The notes beneath the pieces were generated by a model, which searched no databases, was not told the origin of the DNA, and saw only the letters and a program-made list of their open reading frames with translations. Shown one piece after another: positions 5,943 to 41,678 of a stretch of DNA of 41,861 nt. How positions within the stretch are numbered: position 1 is the stretch's first letter; every line of letters starts with the position of its first letter. Position numbers and translations under genes: made by a program. The DNA is from a virus. Taxonomy: Duplodnaviria; Caudoviricetes. The stretch is from positions 1 to 41,861 of the IMG/VR virus record IMGVR_UViG_3300032213_001164; one strand, 5' to 3'.

Positions 5943-8900
5943 TCAAACCTTTTCAACTGCGGACAGGGGGCCAACTTTGCCGCCCTTTTTCTTGCCGGTG
6001 TATTTTTTCATGGCCTCTTCAAACATCATCAGTTCATCGATCATCTGCTGATCGTAGATCTGACGCGGGCCGACCATCTTCAAGGAGCCAAACTCTTGCC
6101 CCGCCTGCTTGGGATTTGCTCGAACAGACATCAGGGTGTCAGGAAAAGTCAACTCATATGGCGTCGGGTATTTCAGGCCGCCGATAAATCTTCCTGGGAT
6201 GTCGTGACTGTATGTCGGATGAGTGGACAAAGGCAACATTGATTTGGGAACATCGGGAGCAAGTTCACCCATTGAGTATCCCGTCACGCCCGTCTCCACG
6301 TTGCGCAAAGGCGCCTCAGTGATCGCGTACCGGATATCCTGGCCGCTTGGCAGATTGAACCTCTCCGTCACCGTTGGCATCTGCATCAGCTTGTTGAAGT
6401 GGCGGCGCAGATGTGGGTCCATTGAGAAGTGCAGGTAGGAGTCAACCTTATCCTCAATCCCAGGAAAGCCCGGGCGAGGACCGGACTTGTCATCGCCAAA
6501 GCGGATCATCTTGTTGAAGCCCTCGATTTGCTTTTTGCTCATCTTGGATAGATCAATCGCCTGAAGATTTGCATCGGCAAAGTGCTGGGCGTAATTGATG
6601 GAGTCCGGCCCCATCATGATGTACTGCCCAATCACTGGCGCATCGTAGGCTTGCGAAGCCTCTTTAGCCACGCGCTGAACGCCCCCTGCCGGGCCAATGC
6701 CAGAAGCCCAGAAGATGTCGTCATTGCGACCCATCCCATAAAGAGGGCCGCCATGCTGCGGAGATGGAAGCTCGAGCTTGATCTCACCAACTCTGACCAA
6801 GGATTTGCCGGTAACGGTTGGATCGCCAGGGATTCCGGTGACGACCTTGCCCTTCAACTCCTGCGGGCTGATGATCTTCTTAGGAGGCGCCTTCTTAACA
6901 TCAGTGAATTCAACGGGGAGATCTTTCTCGCGGGCAAACTGCTTTTGAGTTTTTTCCGCAACAGATGCAGTGCCCTTTGGCCCACGGACAAACTCGCCAG
7001 TTACCTGCGGGGCGATACGCCGAGCCACCTCTTCGATTTCCCCCTTGGATTTCGCCGGGGCTCGCAGCAAAGCTCTGAGGGTATTGATCGTGCCGCCACC
7101 GGCCATCTTCGGCTCGTCGTTGCAGCCGCAGCCTACTGCTCCACCAGCCTTCATGCCGGCTTCTGGCGACGCATCTGAACTGCGCTTGAACAACTCCTGA
7201 TATCGGGCGGTCTCTTCAGGGTTGATGTAGGGCTTGAGTTCAACCCCTTTGCTTCTCAGAAATGCCTGCTCAGTTTCGTTGAAGGCATCTGACGTAGGGC
7301 GCAGTCCAGTGTTGCGGATGTCGCCAACACCTGACCAGTTTCCGCTACGGACGAAGTCTTGCACGAAGGGCAGGTACTGCTCGTTGGGTGCGCGGTTCCC
7401 CTTGCCTTTGATCTGGAAGATGGATTCTGGCTCCGTCTCAAAAATGCTTTGGTACTTGGAGAAAGTTTCAGGATCGTTTTTCTTCAACCATTCCGGGTAT
7501 TGCAAGATGTAATTCTTGGGGCGGTCAACCCCTTTGGCTCTTGATTCCTCGGCAACCTGCTTTGAAAATTGCGCCCATGATGGCTCAAGCTCTGGGTTGT
7601 CATAAAAAATCCCGCTTCTTTCATTCCACTGACGTCCCGGCCTGACCTCCACCGTCACATGGGGCTCGCCCTTTGCATCACGCAGGCTGTAAACGCGCTT
7701 GCGACCAGCCAGAACATCAGGGCAGTAGCCGCCGACGCAGTGGCCCATCGTGTCGCCTTCGTACCTGAGGGCGTCTTTAAGGGCTTTATAGCGCGGGTCT
7801 TCTACAAGTTCACCAGCTTCGTTTCGCAGATACCGCTTATCAACAGTCTCTTTCATGCCTGCTGGCAATTCCTTGGGCTGCGTCAACTCAACCCACCGAT
7901 ACCCCTCCGGATACTCCCTGTAAACCGGCATGCCCTCGGTGGCCTTGATCTGCGCCTCGCGCATCTTCTTGGCCACCTCTTGGTCGAACTCGTAGGTGCG
8001 GCGTACTGCCTGCTCCATGCTGACCTTGTTCAACTGCTCCGGGCGAATGCGGCCAGCGTCGAGGTCTTGCTTGAGAACGTCGATGATGTGGTCGAAGCCC
8101 ATGCCCTCAGACAGCTTGCCTTCCATTGGCGCCCAAACTCTTTCTTTTGAATCAAGTTTGTCCATCCAAGGCTCGTATAGATGGCTGTATACGCCTTCTC
8201 TTGCTAGTTCTTTGCGTTTCCCAGCGGTTTGTCCTGCAATTGCGGTGTCGGCTGCGTCTTCCCATGCTTGCGCGGCTTCAGACTTTCCAAGCTGTTCAGT
8301 CCCCAGTCTGTCTCGGACATCTGGTGCGCGATAACGATTGATGCCAACTTGTTCGCTTGGGATGTGAACAACCCCCTCCTCTGCCAGCTTACGCACCGGA
8401 TCGTCCGGCGTCGCCATCTGCTTCTTGACGTAGTTGGTCAGGTTGCGGTCGATCCACTGATCAATCGCAGCCTCTTTTTTGGTTTCTCCCAACTGATAAA
8501 GAACCCTGTCAATTTGATCCTTGTTCAAGGATGGGTCTGACAACAAAGCCTCATGCCTTGGAATTCTTTGGGCCGGAGTTTCGCCCGCAATTGTTCGCGT
8601 CTTAAGCGGATCAAGCGCCCTCTCCACGCTGCCCGTCAGCCAGTTGCCGCCCACCGGCTTGATCGCCGCGCCGACAGGCAGGCCCCTGGTCAGCGGAGCA
8701 ACCGCTGGGGCCACGCCAAGGACGGTGCCGCCAACGAAGCCGCGCTCGCCGGCCTTCTGGATGCCCTTGTAGTCCGGGTGCATCACGCTGAAGCCAAGCT
8801 GGTCAGGGGCGCTTCCCAGCAGGCCCATTACGGCGGCGTAGGTGCGCGGATCGGGCAGCTTGTTGACATCAGCCTCCTTGGCCTGCTTGACCGCCTTCTG

Positions 8901-11120
8901 GTACTTCCTGCCGGTGGTGTAACGGCCAAAGGCTGCGCCGCCTTCAGCCATCTTGACCTCGCCGCCTTCCTTCTTGCGCTCAAGGATGGTCAGGGCATCC
9001 TCTTCGCCAGGGAAGACGACGAAGTTGCTGGTGCCCTTGCCTGCATCCCGGCTGCTCGCATCGAGGTATCTGATGCCTGGGATGCCGTAGCCCCTCAGAG
9101 CCTCGCTGGTGCCTATCTGATAGTTCTCTGGGTCGAACAGTTCAGGGCGATACCCCTCATCGCGCATGATCATGCGGTGCAGGTCTTTGCCGGTGATTTC
9201 GCTGTCGATGCTGCCGGACTCCTTGCGAACCTGATCAACGTACTTCTCCCAGTCAACGTTGTTGGAATAGTCAACCGGGTCACCTCCGGTCATATCTGCC
9301 CACTCATCGGCCTCTTGGCGCAGGCGCATATCGGCGACCTTCTCGGCTTCCCTCTGGCTCATGCCGACCTCGTAGTCAGTGCCCTTGAGCGCCTTGATAA
9401 CCTCGGGCTGCTGGCTCAGAGGCTTGTCCCAATCCAGCATCCTGGCGATCTTCTCGTCAGGGAGGTCTACGGTGTAACGATATCCGGGATCGCTTGCTAT
9501 GAGCTGGTTGTAAAGCGGGTCTTCCATCTCGGAAGCAGAACGTACTGGCCGATATTTTCCCTCTTCTGCAATCTCTGTGAGGATGGGCCTTTGATCTTTG
9601 GCAATTAATCCATTCTTTTTTGCGTAACGCAAGGCAGCAGCTACATTTGGAAATCGCCAATCAGTAATTCCTTGGGTGGCGTCTCTAGTTCTACCAGTTT
9701 GCTTTCCAACTTCGCTGGTTTTAGCAAGCCGCCATTTTCCATCTCCAGCCGGAGAAGGCTCAATGTACACGCCGCGATTTTCCATTACTCGATTACGAGG
9801 GCTTGCCAAAGTTTTTGCATAGTCCTCCGCAACTCCAGGCGCTTCAGCCAAATACAGCCCATGCCCGTAAGCCTGCGCCCCCTCGCCCGTGCCGATCTTG
9901 CTGGCATCGAACTCACCCAATCGGTTCTTCGGCGTCGGGGCAAACTTGTGCGGGGAGCCGTGGTACACGGTCAGCGGGGAGACGGTTTGGCCTGCCGACT
10001 GCACGAAGTCCTGACCAGCACGCCTGATCGCCCTGGGCACGGCCAAAGCGGCCCTGGCGCCCGACAGAGGCCCGGTGTATGCGCCACCGGCCAACTGGCC
10101 TGCCCCGGTGAACAACTGCCCAACGGGCGTCTGGCTCGCCCCACGGAAGGGGAGGCGCTTCTCAATGTCCTCGGATGTCGGCAGGAAGGTCTTGGACTCA
10201 TTGCCGGTGATCAGTTCGTAGGGCAGGCGGGCGAGGGACTCAATGTCCCCAGGCAGGCCCAAGGTGCCCGACACCAGACCACGGGCGACGGCCACCGGGA
10301 TGTTGGCAGCCGCTTCGCGGTCTTGCTGCGACTCCGGGCGGCGGCCAGCACTGCGGTAGCGAGGGGGGACGAACTGATCAAGCGGGTCACCACCAGCAGT
10401 GCGGAAGCGCGGATCAATCGGTTCGCCGCCCTTCTTCATGTGGACTTCGCCGCCCTTGGCCTTGTTCAACTCGGGGCTTCTGGTGTCGTATGTACCCTTG
10501 TTGCCGATGGCCGACTTGACCGCGTTGGGGTTGTAGGACACCACCTCGGCCAATTTTCCGTCGCGGTCGTACTCAATCAGGCCATCGTAGCCTTGAGCCT
10601 GCGCCCTGGTCTGCACTTCCTTGCCGATGTAGCCCTTGCCCTCGTAGGCCCGCTCCACCATACGGGCCGCCTTGGCTGAGTCCATACCGAGAAGCTCAAG
10701 CGCCTCGATCATGGGATCTTTGTACTTGTCCGGCACTCCGGAGCCGCGAAGAATCAACGGGTTTTTGAGTTGGGCGTACACCGGGAGCATACTGCTACCG
10801 ACCTGTTCGGCATACGATCCAGCAAATTTTGGGTCGGGGGTCAAGTAAACGCCGGAGCCGAGCGCACCTTCCTTGCTGGGCTTGAAGCGACGGATGGACT
10901 CAGTGCCTTTGCCGCCCTCAGAAGCGGTCGTGCCGTGGTACAGGCGCATCGGCGTCTTGCTCTCGGCCAGGAACTTCGCCTTGTTGGCCTCGCGCTCTGC
11001 TGCCGGCAGGGTCTCCTGGGTGCCCTTGAGTCGCTTGGCCAGCTTGGCAATGCCGCCACCAGCGTACTGGCGCTCCTTGGCCATCGCCGTCAGTTTCGCA
11101 ATCGCCCCGGTTTTAGCCAT
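5943..11120 (-). CDS. Large multidomain (polyvalent-type) protein with two ADP-ribosyltransferase-like domains and a PcfJ-like domain; probably virion-packaged
   Basis: 1725 aa. ART-like 1: LYHGT...GVYLT...GYDGL...EVVSY. ART-like 2: VYHGS...GHGLYLAE...GIPGIRY...NFVVF. PcfJ-like: EGDTMGHCVGGY...VYSLRD...PHVTVEV...QIKGKGN. Confidence 0.7.
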   Translation of the reverse strand: MAKTGAIAKLTAMAKERQYAGGGIAKLAKRLKGTQETLPAAEREANKAKFLAESKTPMRLYHGTTASEGGKGTESIRRFKPSKEGALGSGVYLTPDPKFAGSYAEQVGSSMLPVYAQLKNPLILRGSGVPDKYKDPMIEALELLGMDSAKAARMVERAYEGKGYIGKEVQTRAQAQGYDGLIEYDRDGKLAEVVSYNPNAVKSAIGNKGTYDTRSPELNKAKGGEVHMKKGGEPIDPRFRTAGGDPLDQFVPPRYRSAGRRPESQQDREAAANIPVAVARGLVSGTLGLPGDIESLARLPYELITGNESKTFLPTSEDIEKRLPFRGASQTPVGQLFTGAGQLAGGAYTGPLSGARAALAVPRAIRRAGQDFVQSAGQTVSPLTVYHGSPHKFAPTPKNRLGEFDASKIGTGEGAQAYGHGLYLAEAPGVAEDYAKTLASPRNRVMENRGVYIEPSPAGDGKWRLAKTSEVGKQTGRTRDATQGITDWRFPNVAAALRYAKKNGLIAKDQRPILTEIAEEGKYRPVRSASEMEDPLYNQLIASDPGYRYTVDLPDEKIARMLDWDKPLSQQPEVIKALKGTDYEVGMSQREAEKVADMRLRQEADEWADMTGGDPVDYSNNVDWEKYVDQVRKESGSIDSEITGKDLHRMIMRDEGYRPELFDPENYQIGTSEALRGYGIPGIRYLDASSRDAGKGTSNFVVFPGEEDALTILERKKEGGEVKMAEGGAAFGRYTTGRKYQKAVKQAKEADVNKLPDPRTYAAVMGLLGSAPDQLGFSVMHPDYKGIQKAGERGFVGGTVLGVAPAVAPLTRGLPVGAAIKPVGGNWLTGSVERALDPLKTRTIAGETPAQRIPRHEALLSDPSLNKDQIDRVLYQLGETKKEAAIDQWIDRNLTNYVKKQMATPDDPVRKLAEEGVVHIPSEQVGINRYRAPDVRDRLGTEQLGKSEAAQAWEDAADTAIAGQTAGKRKELAREGVYSHLYEPWMDKLDSKERVWAPMEGKLSEGMGFDHIIDVLKQDLDAGRIRPEQLNKVSMEQAVRRTYEFDQEVAKKMREAQIKATEGMPVYREYPEGYRWVELTQPKELPAGMKETVDKRYLRNEAGELVEDPRYKALKDALRYEGDTMGHCVGGYCPDVLAGRKRVYSLRDAKGEPHVTVEVRPGRQWNERSGIFYDNPELEPSWAQFSKQVAEESRAKGVDRPKNYILQYPEWLKKNDPETFSKYQSIFETEPESIFQIKGKGNRAPNEQYLPFVQDFVRSGNWSGVGDIRNTGLRPTSDAFNETEQAFLRSKGVELKPYINPEETARYQELFKRSSDASPEAGMKAGGAVGCGCNDEPKMAGGGTINTLRALLRAPAKSKGEIEEVARRIAPQVTGEFVRGPKGTASVAEKTQKQFAREKDLPVEFTDVKKAPPKKIISPQELKGKVVTGIPGDPTVTGKSLVRVGEIKLELPSPQHGGPLYGMGRNDDIFWASGIGPAGGVQRVAKEASQAYDAPVIGQYIMMGPDSINYAQHFADANLQAIDLSKMSKKQIEGFNKMIRFGDDKSGPRPGFPGIEDKVDSYLHFSMDPHLRRHFNKLMQMPTVTERFNLPSGQDIRYAITEAPLRNVETGVTGYSMGELAPDVPKSMLPLSTHPTYSHDIPGRFIGGLKYPTPYELTFPDTLMSVRANPKQAGQEFGSLKMVGPRQIYDQQMIDELMMFEEAMKKYTGKKKGGKVGPLSAVEKV

Positions 11121-11723: not shown

Positions 11724-13142
11724 TCAGACTGCATACGGGTTAACCCTACGCTGCCTGCCGGTGTCGGCGTAGTCCTCGTCGTCCCAGTCATCCCGAGGCG
11801 GCGGGTCGATTTCAAGCCAGCCGGCATCCCGCAGATACCGCAGGGCCTGGGTGCAGGCGTCCACGAAGTCGTCGTGGGTAGTCTCAGGGAACGAGCAGAT
11901 CTGACTGACGAACCCCTCGGCCCAGTCCTTGACGTAGCCTTTCCTGGCGTCCGACTCCGGTATCCAGACCCGGCCACGGGCGATGATGTTGGACACGATA
12001 TTCAGGCGCTGCATCTTGTCGGCGTTGCCTGGGTTGTAGGCGCGGACGGGCAAGTGCGCTCGCTGGAGGTCTTGGATCAGACTGATGCCGGCGCTCTTGT
12101 CCTCGATCAGCAGCAGATCCACCCGCTTGCGATCCTTGCCCTCGCCGAAGATCGTCTCGTACTCCTCGATCACCTTGGGCCGCAGGTCGGGGTACTGCAT
12201 GCGCTCCTGCCAGCAGTCGATCACCATCACCGACATCGGGCCGTCCAGAGGCTTGAACATGCCGAACGTGATGCATGCGGTCGGGTCGTTCTTAACCTTC
12301 TCGGACGTGGCCACATCGTAGCTCTGGAGGATGTACTCGAACCTGGGGAACTCACGCCCGGCAGGCCAGAGCTTGAACATGCCCCGGTTGACGATGCCGC
12401 CTTCCTCCGGGTCGATGATCTCGGCGTAGATCTCCTGGCGGCCCAGGGTCGTGCCCTCGTACTGAAGGATCTGCTTCCTGAAGTTGTCCGACAGGTTCGC
12501 AAGGTTGGCGTAGGTCGAGGCGGTCGTCAGGACAACGTCATCGCCCTCCCGGCCCACCAACTCGACGATCAGATCCTTCGGCTTAGGCGTGGTGGTGCAG
12601 ATGATCTTGGTGTGGGTGCCCAGGCGGACGCCGAACTGAATCTGGTCCCAGGCCTCTTGGAGATAGTCCCAGGCCGCCAATTCATCGCACCACGCCCCGT
12701 GGAACTGCGGCCCCCGGAACCGCTCGGGTTCCGATGCGGGGATGCCCTTGATCAGGCTGCCGTTGATCAGCTTGAGTTCGTGGAGGGCCTTGTTGTAGTC
12801 GGCGATCAAGGCCGACGGGATCACTGTCAGCAGGCCGGAGTCGCCCTCGAAGCAGGTGGAGCGGACATCGCTCGAAGTCGGAGCCGCCACCAGCCAGCGG
12901 GTGCCTGGGTTCTCCCAAGCCCACCAGCCGATCTGCTCTGCCGCTGTTCGGGTTTTCCCTGCCCCACGGCCGGCGAGCATCAGCCAGATCGACCACCAAT
13001 CCCCAGGGGGCAGCACCTGATGCTTGTGCTGGGCCTGGAACCACGACAGGCGCCATGCCCAGGCAAGCCTGACCTCGGGCTTGACCGCCTTGAGACTCGC
13101 CTGCACCTCTGGGTCGGCGAGGATCTCGGCCACGTCAGTCAT
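11724..13142 (-). CDS. terL: Terminase large subunit
   Basis: Walker A AGRGAGKT, Walker B AWCDE, TTTP coupling motif, RNase H-like nuclease residues (SYDVA, IEDK, HDDFVDA). Confidence 0.95.
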   Translation of the reverse strand: MTDVAEILADPEVQASLKAVKPEVRLAWAWRLSWFQAQHKHQVLPPGDWWSIWLMLAGRGAGKTRTAAEQIGWWAWENPGTRWLVAAPTSSDVRSTCFEGDSGLLTVIPSALIADYNKALHELKLINGSLIKGIPASEPERFRGPQFHGAWCDELAAWDYLQEAWDQIQFGVRLGTHTKIICTTTPKPKDLIVELVGREGDDVVLTTASTYANLANLSDNFRKQILQYEGTTLGRQEIYAEIIDPEEGGIVNRGMFKLWPAGREFPRFEYILQSYDVATSEKVKNDPTACITFGMFKPLDGPMSVMVIDCWQERMQYPDLRPKVIEEYETIFGEGKDRKRVDLLLIEDKSAGISLIQDLQRAHLPVRAYNPGNADKMQRLNIVSNIIARGRVWIPESDARKGYVKDWAEGFVSQICSFPETTHDDFVDACTQALRYLRDAGWLEIDPPPRDDWDDEDYADTGRQRRVNPYAV

Positions 13143-13752
13143 CAGCCTGCTTCTTCAACTCGACGTTCTTCAGCACCGCCGAGAGCAGGTTCTCTGCCTG
13201 CACCTCCGCCTCGATCTTGACCGGATTGTCTGCATCCCCGGCCAGGGCCACCCGCTCCCCGTACTTCTTGGGCTTGAGCTTCATGGCCGTCCACTTCCGG
13301 GCGTCGATACGGTTCTTCTGCCATTGCAGGAAGGCGTTATCCAGCTTGTGCTCGATCAACGCCCCGGTCTTCTTGTCCACCACCGCGATGATCTCGGGCT
13401 GCTCGTCGGCGATGGCGATGATCTCGTCAGCCAGGGTGTCGGCCTGTTCCTCCCGTGCGCGAGTGTACTGGTCAGCAAAATCGGGCTTCTTCAGCAACCA
13501 CTCGTAAATCGTAGCCCGCTCCGGCATCCCTTCCGTCTTTACGATCTCCCTGAGACTCTCCCCTTCTGCTATCCGTAAGCAGATGAGGTTTGCCATCTGT
13601 TGGGTGAACATCGTTGGCCTGCCCAACTTCTTCTTTGTGGGCTCCTGGGCGTTTTGCGGCGCGATGGCTATCTCACCCTTGGTTTCGGGCTTTGAAGCCT
13701 CCTGGGGCTGTTTTGGCGCCTTCCTGGCACCCTTCTTGGCGGTTTCTGGCAT
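13135..13752 (-). CDS. terS: Terminase small subunit
   Basis: GRPT...ICLRIAEGESLREI...TIYEWL HTH and RIDARKW...KLKPKKYG, directly upstream of terL. Confidence 0.9.
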   Translation of the reverse strand: MPETAKKGARKAPKQPQEASKPETKGEIAIAPQNAQEPTKKKLGRPTMFTQQMANLICLRIAEGESLREIVKTEGMPERATIYEWLLKKPDFADQYTRAREEQADTLADEIIAIADEQPEIIAVVDKKTGALIEHKLDNAFLQWQKNRIDARKWTAMKLKPKKYGERVALAGDADNPVKIEAEVQAENLLSAVLKNVELKKQADD

Positions 13753-13850: not shown

Positions 13851-14066
13851 TCAAGACGCGGCAGACTCAATCAACTCCACTTGCTCAGGGGCGCGGTACT
13901 GCTCGATCTTCATGCCGGCCGTCAGAGCCTGGACGAGATCGTCCTGAGACGCAACCCGGATGTTGAACGTGCTGTTTGCGACGTGACTCAGCGCCTGCTG
14001 ACGCATGCCAGCTTTGACCAATCGAGCCCCCTGCGGGCCGTGGACGATGTAAATGCGATCTGCCAT
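13851..14066 (-). CDS. Hypothetical protein
   Basis: MADRIYIVHGPQGARLVKA...; ATG at 14066 with GGAGAG RBS. Confidence 0.6.
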   Translation of the reverse strand: MADRIYIVHGPQGARLVKAGMRQQALSHVANSTFNIRVASQDDLVQALTAGMKIEQYRAPEQVELIESAAS

Positions 14067-14110
14067 TTTGGCTCTCCATATTGATTTATGTACCCGCCAC
14101 ATTGACGGTC

Positions 14111-14127
14111 GAAACCGATTCGGTTTC
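14111..14127. promoter_or_regulatory. Palindromic site GAAACCGA-T-TCGGTTTC (copy of the AACCGATTCGGTT motif)
   Basis: The exact 13-mer also occurs at 24661-24673 and 25108-25120. Confidence 0.5.
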
Positions 14128-14160
14128 TCTTCGCTTTCGGTTCGCTGTTGATCCGCTTTG

Positions 14161-14240
14161 TGGCGTTGGTGGCTGGTTATGAGTCCAGCATCTACTGCGT
14201 CAATTCGCAGTCGTTTTCCACACTTCTAAACTACACCAAC
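14161..14240 (-). ncRNA. Degenerate tRNA-like cloverleaf A with encoded 3' G-CCA
   Basis: GTTGGTG TA GTTT-AGAAGTGTGGA-AAAC G ACTGCG-AATTGA-CGCAGT AGAT GCTGG-ACTCATAA-CCAGC CACCAAC G CCA. Four intact stems, but non-canonical anticodon and T loops. Confidence 0.65.
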
Positions 14241-14393
14241 ACGGCTGGGGACTCGTCGTGCGTCCTTCGATTGAGCGGCGACACCGGCCGCATCCCCATG
14301 CGTGTTAGCTGTTGGCGAGAGGATTCGCACCTCCGACATCCCCGACCCAGCAGGGCGCTCTCCTTCTGAGCTACACCAACACGGCTGGGGACT
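14231..14393. repeat. 23-nt exact direct repeat CTACACCAACACGGCTGGGGACT, two copies (14231-14253, 14371-14393)
   Basis: Read directly from the sequence; period 140 nt. Confidence 0.95.
14311..14380 (-). ncRNA. Degenerate tRNA-like cloverleaf B
   Basis: GTTGGTG TA GCTC-AGAAGGA-GAGC G CCCTG-CTGGGT-CGGGG ATGTC GGAGG-TGCGAAT-CCTCT CGCCAAC. 6-nt anticodon loop, TGC instead of TTC in the T loop, no encoded CCA. Confidence 0.7.
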
Positions 14394-14469
14394 GAAGCAC
14401 AAGATGCGGGTATCCCCCTGTGCCTCGCTCAACGATCAATCCCCATGCGTCTTGGTGCGGACTACTACC

Positions 14470-14694
14470 CTACTCGCGCTTTCGCTTTTGGAGCTTCGCC
14501 CGCGTTGCCATTTTACCCTTTTGCGGCTTTTTCTGAAAGTAAAAATTTTGCACATCCTCACCCATCCACTTTGCGAATTTACTCAGGTCTTCGGGGTCAA
14601 TGACGTACCAAGTCCTCCTGGCCACATCCCATTGGGCACCAAGCAGTTTCGCGGAATCTTTTTCGTCGAACGGAATCTGAAGATCAACTCGCAT
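14470..14694 (-). CDS. DUF5710-like small protein
   Basis: LQIPFDEKDSAKLLGAQWD...WYV pattern with a basic tail. Confidence 0.6.
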   Translation of the reverse strand: MRVDLQIPFDEKDSAKLLGAQWDVARRTWYVIDPEDLSKFAKWMGEDVQNFYFQKKPQKGKMATRAKLQKRKRE

Positions 14695-14988
14695 GGTCTT
14701 TTGGCATAGCTGCTCCGGGTGACCCTCTGCTGGTTCACTCTCCATCTATGGGGTTCATCTGCCCATCCATAAACCAAGTGCGCTTGACGGGTTGATTCAT
14801 CGGGATGATTGCTCAGGAGCCTGTCACATTCAATCATGCCTGCGCCAATCCCTCAACCAAGGCTGGCACGGGTCGGTTGGTCTTTCCGATCCGGTTTGCA
14901 CACTTGACCCTTTTCTTCCGCGCAGCCGGAAAGGCATATGCGCCCAATTGGCTCTTTCTTTCGTGCGGAGTACGGCTGCGTCGAAAAC

Positions 14989-15058
14989 AAAAAAGCCGTT
15001 ACTGCTGCACTGGGTCGAAACCCCCGTGTTACCGGAGGCCAGTGCATGAGTAACGGCT
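14989..15058 (-). terminator. Branched hairpin with U-tract (attenuator / small RNA)
   Basis: AGCCGTTACT-CAT-GCACTGG-[CCTCCG GTAACA CGGGGG TTTCGAC]-CCAGTGC-AGC-AGTAACGGCT followed by TTTTT. Confidence 0.7.
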
Positions 15059-15091
15059 CTCAATCTGTTGCTTTCGACGACAACGGAGCGG

Positions 15092-15119
15092 AGTATACGC
15101 CCGACACAACGAATGTCAA
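15092..15119 (-). promoter_or_regulatory. Sigma70-type promoter
   Basis: TTGACA (15119-15114), 16-nt spacer, TATACT (15097-15092). Confidence 0.7.
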
Positions 15120-16153
15120 CAGGTGCTACGAAGTATTTTTATAACCGATTCGCTTTCGATTGGGTTTTGATTCGGTTGATTGAACAGGTTCATCTCGGCG
15201 CTGATGCGCTCCTGCTGCAACGGGCCGTAGTCCGGGTTCAGTTCGCAACCCAGGTATTGCCTGTCGTGCTGGAGGGCTACCGCTGCCGTGGTGCCGCTTC
15301 CTATGAAGGGGTCGAGCACGATGTCGCCAGGACGGCTTCCGGCCAGGATGCAAGGCTCGATCAGGGCCGTTGGGAATGTGGCGAAGTGAGCGCCCTTGTA
15401 AGGCCGGGTGGCGACTGTCCAGACGCTGCGGCGGTTGCGGCCACTCGCAGTCGGATCGCCAAGCACTCCCATATTTCCTCCTGCTGTGAACGAGTGCGCA
15501 CCCCGGTTATTGCTCGTCTGCCCGTCCTGCTTTCGGTACTCCCAGCTTTGCGCTGACTGCTTCACACGGTCGTCTGCAAACGGCTCACGCACGGCATCAG
15601 CGTCATAAAAATACCGCTCCGACTTCGACAGCAGGAAGATGTACTCATGCGCCTTGGTGCAGCGGTCACGCACCGACTCAGGCATGGGGTTGGGCTTGTG
15701 CCAGATGATGTCCTGGCGCAGATACCAGCCATCGGCGCGAAGGGCGAAGGCCAGCATCCAGGGGATGCCGATCAGGTCTTTGGGCTTGCAGCCGCTTGGC
15801 ACTTTGGTGCCGCTTGTTGCCCCCCGCCATCGCCCTTCGGTTTTTGCTCCTACGCTTGGCTTTCCTAGTTCCTCCATCCTTGCCTCCCCGCGCCCGCCTT
15901 GCGTTGCATAACTGTCCCCGATGTTCAGCCACAGAGTCCCATCGTCAGCCAACACATCGCGCACACATCGGAACACCTCGACCATTGCCGTGATGTACTC
16001 CTCTGGCGTCTGCTCAAGGCCGATCTGCCCCTCATGGCCGTAGTCCCGCAGGCCGAAGTAAGGTGGGCTGGTGACGCACATCTGCGCCTTCACGCCCTCA
16101 CCTGCCCAGCGCCGCATCGTGTCGCGACAGTCACCAAATTCAATTTTGTTCAT
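15116..16153 (-). CDS. DNA methyltransferase, N4-C/N6-A, beta class
   Basis: Catalytic VTSPPY precedes the SAM-binding [10 protein letters not shown]; also [12 protein letters not shown] and HFATFP. Start MNKIEFGDC. Confidence 0.9.
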
Positions 16154-40654: not shown

Positions 40655-41286
40655 GAATCCCTCACAATCGCCTGACGGTCAGCCACCCTGGTGATGTTTT
40701 CTTCCTTCAGGACTTGGATGATGCGGTCGTAGTTGCCCTGCCACATTGGCATGCGCTCGTCGTTCTTGAGGAACGGCATGGCCTGGAGCAGGGAGCCATA
40801 GAGCAGCGCCTGGGGGGCGTACTCCGTGAACCAGTTGGACTGATTGCTTGAGTCAAGCGGCTGCACGCGCTCGTAGTACAGCACCTCGTAGTTGTACGCG
40901 ACGTCTGGCGTCGGGCCAACGAGCCAGTGTTCGTAGTCGTAGTCGCAGAAGAACTTCGGGGCATCCTCCTGCGCCGGATCTGGCCAATACTCGCGGATGT
41001 ACTCGTAGCTGCGGATCAGCACCGGTTGACGCTTGCCCGCCACCGTGACGTTCATTGAAACCGTCTTGCGCCAACGCGCCGGCTTGGCGATCACGTTGGC
41101 ACCCTGAACCATCTGGCTGGTTACCACTTGGATGTTGCCCAGGAATTTCAGATCGGCGGCAATGATCTGTTCCGCCAGCATGATGAACTGGGGAATCTTG
41201 TCCAGGGTGGCTTGGTCGGTACGCTCCAGATACGTCTGGATGTCGTTGACCAAGCTGTCGTATGTCATGACTGCGGCTACGGTCAT
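40651..41286 (-). CDS. Putative head-tail adaptor
   Basis: TYDSLVNDIQTYLER...IPQFIMLAE...PTPD...ALLYGSLLQAMPFLKNDER. Confidence 0.65.
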   Translation of the reverse strand: MTVAAVMTYDSLVNDIQTYLERTDQATLDKIPQFIMLAEQIIAADLKFLGNIQVVTSQMVQGANVIAKPARWRKTVSMNVTVAGKRQPVLIRSYEYIREYWPDPAQEDAPKFFCDYDYEHWLVGPTPDVAYNYEVLYYERVQPLDSSNQSNWFTEYAPQALLYGSLLQAMPFLKNDERMPMWQGNYDRIIQVLKEENITRVADRQAIVRDS

Positions 41287-41678
41287 CACCACACCTTCTT
41301 CTTGATGGAGTCGGGCTGCGGGACAAATTGTTTGCCCTGGCGCATGCCCTCTCTCTTGGCTCGCGTTGTTGCCGCGTATTCAGAAGGTGTTAACTTCTCT
41401 CGTGCCTTTTTGGGCAGATACCGCTCGCCGGTTGCTTGGGAACCCTGTGTGGACGGCTTTCCAGACTTCGTGCCCCAGTCCTCTTTCGTCCACTGTGAGA
41501 GCGAATTATCCGCCTTCTTGGGGCCTTTGTAACCCCCCCCAGAAGATTTGTACTTCTGCGTGGCAAGCTGGGCCTTCCTGGCGCTCCACTGCCCAGGAGA
41601 GCCACCTTTCCCACTGGCCTTGACCTGGGAAACGATCCTGTCCCATTTTGCGGGGTCTGTCTTTTTTGCGGTGCTCAT
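41286..41678 (-). CDS. Highly basic protein (DUF5872-like, tentative)
   Basis: GQWSARKAQL...YK..GGGY...LSQWTKEDW...ERYLPK. Confidence 0.6.
   Translation of the reverse strand: MSTAKKTDPAKWDRIVSQVKASGKGGSPGQWSARKAQLATQKYKSSGGGYKGPKKADNSLSQWTKEDWGTKSGKPSTQGSQATGERYLPKKAREKLTPSEYAATTRAKREGMRQGKQFVPQPDSIKKKVW

Follow-up and report, generated by a model that had tools for sequence, protein, structure and literature searches.

An RNA stem-loop shared by a phage kissing leader and a tRNA-like array is a probable site for host RNase III

Plasmid antisense attenuators and pseudoknot switches, among them pT181/pIP501 and IncI repZ, depend on loop-loop contact with an RNA acting in trans, the loop setting the specificity; their antisense RNA is transcribed from the opposite strand and pairs in full. 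The phage leader described here differs from them in pairing over 7 nt only and within the same strand. In P4, the small CI RNA is cut from its own leader and pairs with an upstream box (seqA), which results in early termination (PMC4825925), and both CI and C4 are described as RNase P substrates (PMC5499578). RNase III, for its part, cuts the E. coli pre-16S RNA at positions mapped to -115/+33 (PMC8708148), and the T7 early transcript carries five RNase III signals (PMC3867540), likewise a case of cutting in a polycistronic phage RNA. Phage RNAs processed by RNase III are known, as are attenuators that derive an antisense RNA from their own transcript. The combination seen here matches nothing in Rfam or in the literature searched, and the same is true of an array alternating rRNA-like RNase III stems with acceptor-like stems around interchangeable cargo.

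The stretch of DNA that was analysed (the window, 41,861 nt) is a 41.9-kb tailed-phage record, 76% complete, whose gene set includes terminase, portal, primase, helicase and initiator. A leader (class B) and an array (class A) form a block on its minus strand, with a DNA methyltransferase gene on one side and the terminase genes on the other (Table 1). It was noted that a 32-nt imperfect repeat (78%) with a palindromic core, at 14113-14144 and 15143-15174, flanks the whole block, and that similar text follows the arrays of the close relatives L001, L006 and L138; this repeat is possibly a DNA binding site or a cassette boundary. After the terminase genes, positions 5943-11120 encode a polyvalent protein of 1725 aa in which an ADP-ribosyltransferase domain (PF18760) and, weakly, PcfJ are recognised, and several relatives carry a leader between the terminase and a large gene similar to this one.

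Table 1. Coordinates of the leader-array block and adjoining genes in the window, in the order of transcription
Feature	Positions	Strand	Remarks
Sigma-70-type promoter	15092..15119	-	11 of 12 consensus matches; points into the leader
5' hairpin H1	15067..15084	-	Loop heptamer 15078-15072 complementary to the bulge of the terminator hairpin
Class B leader hairpin, likely intrinsic terminator	14988..15058	-	Lower stem, 2x2 loop (15048-15047 with 15005-15004), inner helix, side hairpin, 7-nt bulge 15020-15014; U tract at end; fold z -7.8
Predicted 47-nt RNase III product carrying the bulge	15002..15048	-	Predicted cuts 15049/15048 and 15002/15001; matrix score -22.5
Non-coding stretch of ~240 nt behind the terminator	14746..14985	-	75% over 195 nt to locus L241
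DUF5710 ORF, 74 aa	14470..14694	-	DUF5710 match, E 5e-18
Class A stem 1, variable cargo	14374..14457	-	Predicted 66-nt product 14447-14382; matrix score -20.0
tRNA-like module T1	14310..14381	-	5' acceptor strand overlaps the 3' arm of stem 1
Class A stem 2, different cargo	14235..14309	-	Predicted 59-nt product 14300-14242; matrix score -28.7
Module T2	14165..14241	-	Acceptor-like closing stem around three hairpins
Terminase small and large subunit genes	11724..13752	-	Downstream of the block, same strand

A previous sequence-only reading of this DNA had described one CAU/AGC internal-loop motif occurring in three hairpins. All three hairpins were confirmed at the places it gave, on the minus strand, although the independent contexts number only two because both array hairpins repeat one module (repeat family D10). 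The loop does recur but is smaller than had been proposed: it is a 2x2 loop (C·C and A·G), closed in the window by U-A and G-C pairs, and the U and A of the supposed loop pair with each other. A descriptor requiring CAUG/CAGC with at least three outer and at least four inner pairs matched three times in the 41,861 bases on both strands, each time within 14235-15061. Whole-window shuffles averaged 0.33 matches and reached three in 1 of 100, and shuffles of 14001-15200 gave one match in 10 of 2000 and two in none, placing the motif far above background. The minus-strand preference was also borne out by the fold z-scores (-7.8, -5.1 and -2.5, against -5.6, -2.7 and -1.8 on the plus strand) and by the wobbles: G-C pairs of the array stems drift to G·U and not to A·C, as expected of an RNA read from the minus strand.

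Pattern scans of IMG/VR returned at least 120 stretches for each hairpin type (estimates of 210 and 340), and the metagenome abundance was estimated at ~1300 stretches. Both the leader and the array RNA class are widespread, occurring in well over a hundred other phage records. The scans were rerun with the loop left unspecified, by which circularity was avoided. The loop-free leader scan found CAUG in 72 of the 77 distinct matches listed, 71 of them with CAGY, and the remaining matches were four reverse reads of the same hairpins and one unrelated sequence. In the corresponding array scan, 96 of the 110 listed matches possessed the outer arm, and among these 83 carried CAU and 76 the full CAU/AGY, the rest of the scan including reverse reads and chance matches. 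The family consensus is a 2x2 mismatch (C·Y, A·G) in ACN-CA-UG / CA-GY-N'GU. The loop bases had been called identical, which holds in the window but not in relatives, where the 3' side reads CAGY (U in 63 and C in 8 of 71 listed leaders); CA and G are invariant in the listed leaders, and the loop G is altered in 7 of 83 listed array-stem copies. The switch of the flanking pair that had been remarked upon extends to the family, since the closing pair covaries among the listed leaders (U-A in 46, A-U in 23, unpaired in 3).

Variants of the leader were also encountered. A third leader family (L099, L108, L664, L669) has the same CAUG/CAGC loop on a different lower stem, and two of its members (L664, L669) show an additional 9-nt complementarity between the 5' end and the hairpin. 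In sister kissing leaders (L087, L129, L135, L153, L156, L648-L654), the stem is either fully paired or interrupted by a 1x1 mismatch, and two side hairpins are frequent.

The class B leader is built in a constant order of promoter, short 5' hairpin, linker, long hairpin with the 2x2 loop, a side hairpin and a 7-nt bulge, and U tract. A -10 box precedes 133 of the 146 listed leaders and both boxes precede 103, compared to 32.7 and 5.7 in shuffles. The most strongly covarying feature of the leader, which was absent from the earlier finding, is a 7-nt pairing of the 5' loop with the bulge. Complementarity of at least 7 nt was present in 146 of 149 listed viral copies versus 246 of 2980 mismatched pairings (8%), and a separate metagenome scan (120 loci listed, 111 distinct matches, 89 hairpin-forming) found kissing in 88 of the 89 hairpin-forming copies. 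The pairing is exactly 7 nt and both stems are preserved. Within a 59-sequence alignment, the named leader structure beats all slid controls and six of the seven kissing pairs change on both sides; the changes are almost only double Watson-Crick swaps (97 two-sided versus 5 one-sided cells). Altogether 41 different kissing 7-mers occur among the listed viral copies and 36 in the metagenome scan, and the 41 do not exceed the 46 types of a plain helix 5-mer, so this diversity gives no sign of diversifying selection.

Among 17 genomes chosen for having either class, exactly one leader was present in 15 and none in the other two, while array stems occurred in nine and both classes in seven. The ORF that follows 95 listed leaders encodes an HNH nuclease (12), terminase (7), RecE-like protein (5), Tgt-like protein (4), methyltransferase (4), major capsid protein (3), initiator (3) or primase (2), and the remainder are mostly unnamed. 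In L230, L254 and L264 this ORF matches only the C-terminal half of replication initiator families. A reading of the leader as a replication origin would fit both the single leader per genome and the initiator C-terminal halves behind 3 of 95 leaders, but in the window the initiator gene stands apart, ~9.6 kb off. A leader peptide from the AUG within the stem was rejected (frames 60/53/36; ORF lengths 2-117 aa).

Behind the terminator, conserved non-coding families of ~250 nt begin directly in several loci (e.g. L001, L036, L205, L451, L465). The stretch at this place in the window has a fold of its own that is not above shuffles (z -0.9), and a promoter scan of the window region behind the terminator found a weak one only. 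A hidden ORF in the downstream RNA was not consistent on either strand. One of these families is Rfam Betaproteobacteria-1 (RF02932), located in L451 and L453/L098 either directly behind the class B terminator or at a distance of ~350 nt; it makes up only part of the downstream RNA, includes neither leader nor array, and is absent from the window. Its conservation behind leaders seems to extend past the 120-nt model. No second target for the bulge turned up in the 30 nt past the U tract, which pair instead with the 5' loop (at least 6 nt in 33 of 143 versus 370 of 7150), and the box behind the terminator carries the bulge sense.

Class A stems consist of constant arms around variable cargo, and their 3' arm overlaps the 5' strand of the next module, which has an acceptor-like stem. 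The listed class A cargos comprise 152 distinct sequences in 92 clusters and the listed acceptor-module cargos 108 in 61 clusters, the cassettes being clearly shuffled. Rfam recognised occasional tRNAs only among the array cargos and, in the window block, only the tRNA-like module between the array hairpins. This module, T1, reaches 49.1 bits with the Rfam tRNA model and has an aberrant anticodon arm (ARAGORN, 0 genes); T2, with no Rfam match, has a CAU-centred loop in the last of its three hairpins. We also observed CAU-anticodon tRNA genes beside arrays or leaders (L122 2330-2401, L135 2702-2773, L452 1345-1416, L467 1008-1080), with the first position unpaired as in initiator tRNA. A role of the array cargo as leader antisense was rejected: a known bulge 7-mer was found in 19 of 152 cargos compared to 13.7 in shuffles (maximum 26), and with 7-, 8- and 9-mers alike the loops of both cargo types matched leaders, hairpins and downstream RNAs no better than controls did. 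In L085, the array cargo just upstream of the leader has a loop with 10-nt complementarity to the 3' arm of the terminator next to it; this stretch differs in the relatives, and a global test was without enrichment.

Recognition by an RNase III-type enzyme had been suggested for the motif. We scored every register of every hairpin with in-vivo pair counts from 85 E. coli RNase III substrates (PMC6212723, its Table S4), with a strict cut-off of -25.5 from the same paper and a matrix re-implementation that ignores gap columns. The helix spans ~20 bp in the leader and 17-20 bp in the array stems, with one 2x2 loop. The best register lies just below the loop (ACN^CAUG, CAGYN'G^U) in 143 of 146 leaders and 129 of 150 array stems listed. 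The strict cut-off is passed by 145 of 146 leaders and 109 of 150 array stems on a matrix that is permissive and derived from E. coli, its reverse-strand pass rate being 101 of 146 and 20 of 150. In the window, the leader (the best of its 12 registers) and stem 1 pass, and stem 2 does not; for stem 2 another register scores slightly higher, at -27.8.

The pairs conserved in the below-loop register are those that RNase III reads, namely U-A at D, A-U/U-A at D' and B', and C-G at A', and the mismatches fall at B and C, positions at which the in-vivo table tolerates them. The frequencies are 1.00 for U-A at D, 0.99 and 0.93 at D', and 1.00 and 0.98 for C-G at A', with the D pair fixed by the descriptor and several other scored columns fixed by the search patterns. 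In four of five related kissing leaders whose loop is instead a single (1x1) U·U or C·A mismatch, that mismatch occupies B in the same register. Permutation of the stem pairs, a control resting on perhaps two or three lineages because the copies are kin, matched the real median in only 2.3% and 1.6% of trials for the two classes. Random loops, under the same kinship, equalled the real median in 31% and 21% of trials, the real loop ranking 27th and 32nd of 100 mismatch pairs, and the rules therefore explain the stem and the place of the loop, not the exact CA/GY letters. Cuts straddling the internal loop were rejected: their mean scores are -28.6 and -29.1, and none of the 85 substrates has A·G at position A. 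The suggested RNase III-type site is supported by the matrix, the permuted stems and the rRNA stems described below, with its predicted cuts lying below the loop rather than across it. In 116 of 121 cases, the 3' cut is predicted exactly where the helix of the next module starts or one base ahead of it, and the cut predicted in stem 1 would free the 5' acceptor strand of T1.

We then compared the phage stems with those of candidate hosts. A scan of genome contigs gave 42 matches of which two were real, both on ~2-kb contigs in MAGs, including an array copy on a 1.8-kb contig of a MAG named uncultured Burkholderiales. The 401 genomes of the order of this MAG returned three matches, none a hairpin by eye, compared to 10 for a reversed control pattern, and cultured phages gave tRNA-level matches only. 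Because of the Burkholderiales MAG copy and the Betaproteobacteria-1 RNAs beside leaders, 16S loci were fetched from the order and family of that MAG (28 loci, 26 with usable flanks); E. coli was the other taxon compared. The same scoring script recovers the E. coli -115/+33 cuts unaided and picks the homologous site in 20 of the 26 host-group stems. When these stems are anchored by homology alone, the cut is followed by CGUG or UGUG, and position B holds C·A in 16 of the 26 and a different mismatch in three; one row was mispaired by the script and shows U·U in a separate comparison. The phage CAUG/CAGY is one step away from this host sequence.

Array stems share a median of 23 of 32 bases with the host stems, at shift 0 only (other shifts 10-12; permuted controls 1 in 10,000). 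Leader stems share a median of 14 of 32, which is not significant (control 0.07), and many of them are one pair longer. The window copies share 20 (leader), 22 (stem 1) and 24 (stem 2) of 32 bases with the host-group stems. The host assignment is weak, since the short MAG contig may be misbinned and the taxa compared were that group and E. coli. Like the pre-16S sites, the phage motif has the helix, A-U/U-A pairs at D and D', a weak pair at B and the register with a 2-nt overhang. Unlike the rRNA and T7 sites, it adds an A·G at C, and its predicted products, from cuts that are predicted only, would be small non-coding RNAs rather than rRNA or mRNA. From these comparisons, the shared element is quite probably a host RNase III site resembling a Burkholderiales pre-16S stem.

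The leader resembles P4 CI (seqA/seqC) and P1/P7 C4 (RF01695, c4-a1b1, c4-2) in its short complementarity to an upstream box of its own, a likeness drawn from PMC4825925, PMC5499578, PMC2864571 and PMC5737381. It differs from them in that its stem is of RNase III type and in that only the upstream target was found, with no equivalent of seqC or a2/b2 found nearby. The Rfam models C4, c4-2 and isrK had no match in the window and 60 loci. Tyrosine integrase and an S24 (CI-type) repressor were each found in 1 of 51 records. With no Rfam match, no nearby downstream target and no temperate sign, the leader is not a C4/CI member. The literature searched holds no description of the leader and array family, though unnamed candidates may sit in the supplements of PMC10690425 and PMC5737381; the motif strings are absent from the searched files of Fremin et al. 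(PMC10690425). Leader and array are a real, widespread and uncatalogued RNA element.

A small ORF between leader and array had been put forward as a DUF5710-like protein and a candidate partner of the motif. The domain assignment was confirmed (Table 1); as a partner it failed, since only one of the 50 motif-bearing records encodes the protein, with none among the 24 near-complete ones, and, among 600 loci, the gene lies near the motif in its own genome and L511 only. The DUF5710 ORF is a passenger and not a conserved partner. Across the 17 genomes compared, seven of which were covered partly, no protein cluster was common to all; the best, at 13 of 17, is a small basic protein encoded at 41286-41678 in the window and unnamed in PHROGs. 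The view that leader and array belong to one system holds with respect to a shared enzyme site but not as an obligate unit: an array lies within 1.4 kb downstream, the arrangement seen in the window, in only 4 of 99 listed leaders, and a leader within 1.4 kb on either side of 16 of 60 listed array modules.

The phage likely borrows host RNase III to cut small RNAs from leader and array, and an RNase III site releasing such RNAs, taken together with the leader and array steps that follow, is the best explanation overall and one we consider fairly probable. In the array, each stem would form first during transcription and then be cut. This would free a capped cargo hairpin of ~45-110 nt and also the 5' strand of the next acceptor-like module, which could then close on its own 3' end. 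The products released from the window would be RNAs of 47, 66 and 59 nt plus the acceptor modules. In the leader, the 5' loop would kiss the nascent 7-nt bulge in cis, and a prefix fold ending just past the bulge indeed pairs the bulge with the 5' box. The ~20-bp terminator helix could not wind through the loop so closed, and polymerase would therefore read through. Every leader transcript would eventually refold and be cut to give a 47-nt RNA with a free bulge; as it accumulates, this RNA would bind the 5' loops of newly made transcripts, so that termination resumes. Promoter firing would in this way be subject to negative feedback by RNA alone, confined to a single 7-mer type, a scheme that we propose tentatively and with somewhat less than even confidence. 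The terminase (7 of 95) and major capsid (3 of 95) genes behind leaders fit a late shut-off poorly.

The site could also be cut in a leader that works in reverse, as IsrK does, with an accumulating short RNA switching on late-gene read-through or translation and so serving as a timer. The leader is like Gifsy-1 IsrK, the precedent for this (described in PMC4825925), in its promoter, short RNA, leaky intrinsic terminator and a short form that would act on the long one. Packaging or capsid genes follow in the window and nine other records, and 50 of 51 records are without integrase and CI-type repressor, so that repression for lysogeny is not needed. However, IsrK activates orf45-anrP translation, whereas the phage leader has neither a conserved ORF nor an Rfam match. 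None of the predicted products shows complementarity to the terminator's 5' arm, and no frame from the in-stem AUG is conserved, which leaves the timer unlikely.

Another possibility is that the loop binds a specific protein, either a host factor or an RNase III that does not cut, and that the hairpins stay intact. The invariance of CA and G in the leaders exceeds what the matrix needs, the same loop recurs on a different base in the third stem family (L099, L108, L664, L669), and cleavage-resistant RNase III binding sites are described (PMC1540722, PMC3867540). Yet no phage protein travels with the motif, the sister leaders do without the loop and use U·U or full pairing, and the loop G is changed in 7 of 83 listed array stems; we regard uncut protein-binding hairpins as distinctly unlikely.

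Quite unlikely, too, is a kiss that acts purely in cis, as a tertiary contact within a free-standing RNA of ~100 nt whose mismatch tunes or limits RNase III by a single nick or by protection. The promoter and terminator do bound a discrete RNA, the pairing of exactly 7 nt keeps both stems, internal loops can limit RNase III to one strand, and the 7-mer diversity is not above that of the helix. Against this, changes in the kissing pairs are nearly always double Watson-Crick swaps (97 versus 5), and conserved RNAs and genes lie behind the terminator, where the scan shows only a weak promoter in the window. A DNA element (an operator, a methylation site at CATG, or a recombination hairpin for cassette shuffling) is very improbable: CATG is palindromic, the block lies directly downstream of a methyltransferase gene and the array shows clear cassette shuffling, but the arm spacing ranges from ~35 to 130 nt, G-C is replaced by G·U on one strand only, the RNA folds are stronger on the transcribed strand, and ordinary recombination on the constant arms could shuffle the cassettes.

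Returning to the RNase III site as the preferred reading, its furthest extension, which we hold with low confidence, would be an RNA-only control layer built on host RNase III in apparently non-integrating phages, comprising a transcript-counting attenuator and shuffled small-RNA arrays. In this joint reading, the leaders would provide dozens of 7-nt exclusion codes between co-infecting phages, and the arrays would mass-produce dozens of small RNAs from two alternating constant stems, by analogy to microRNA clusters, aimed at targets in the host or in rival phages. The model makes exact predictions, namely six cut sites and a 7-nt code, and resemblance to rRNA stems may prove useful for linking uncultured phages to their hosts.
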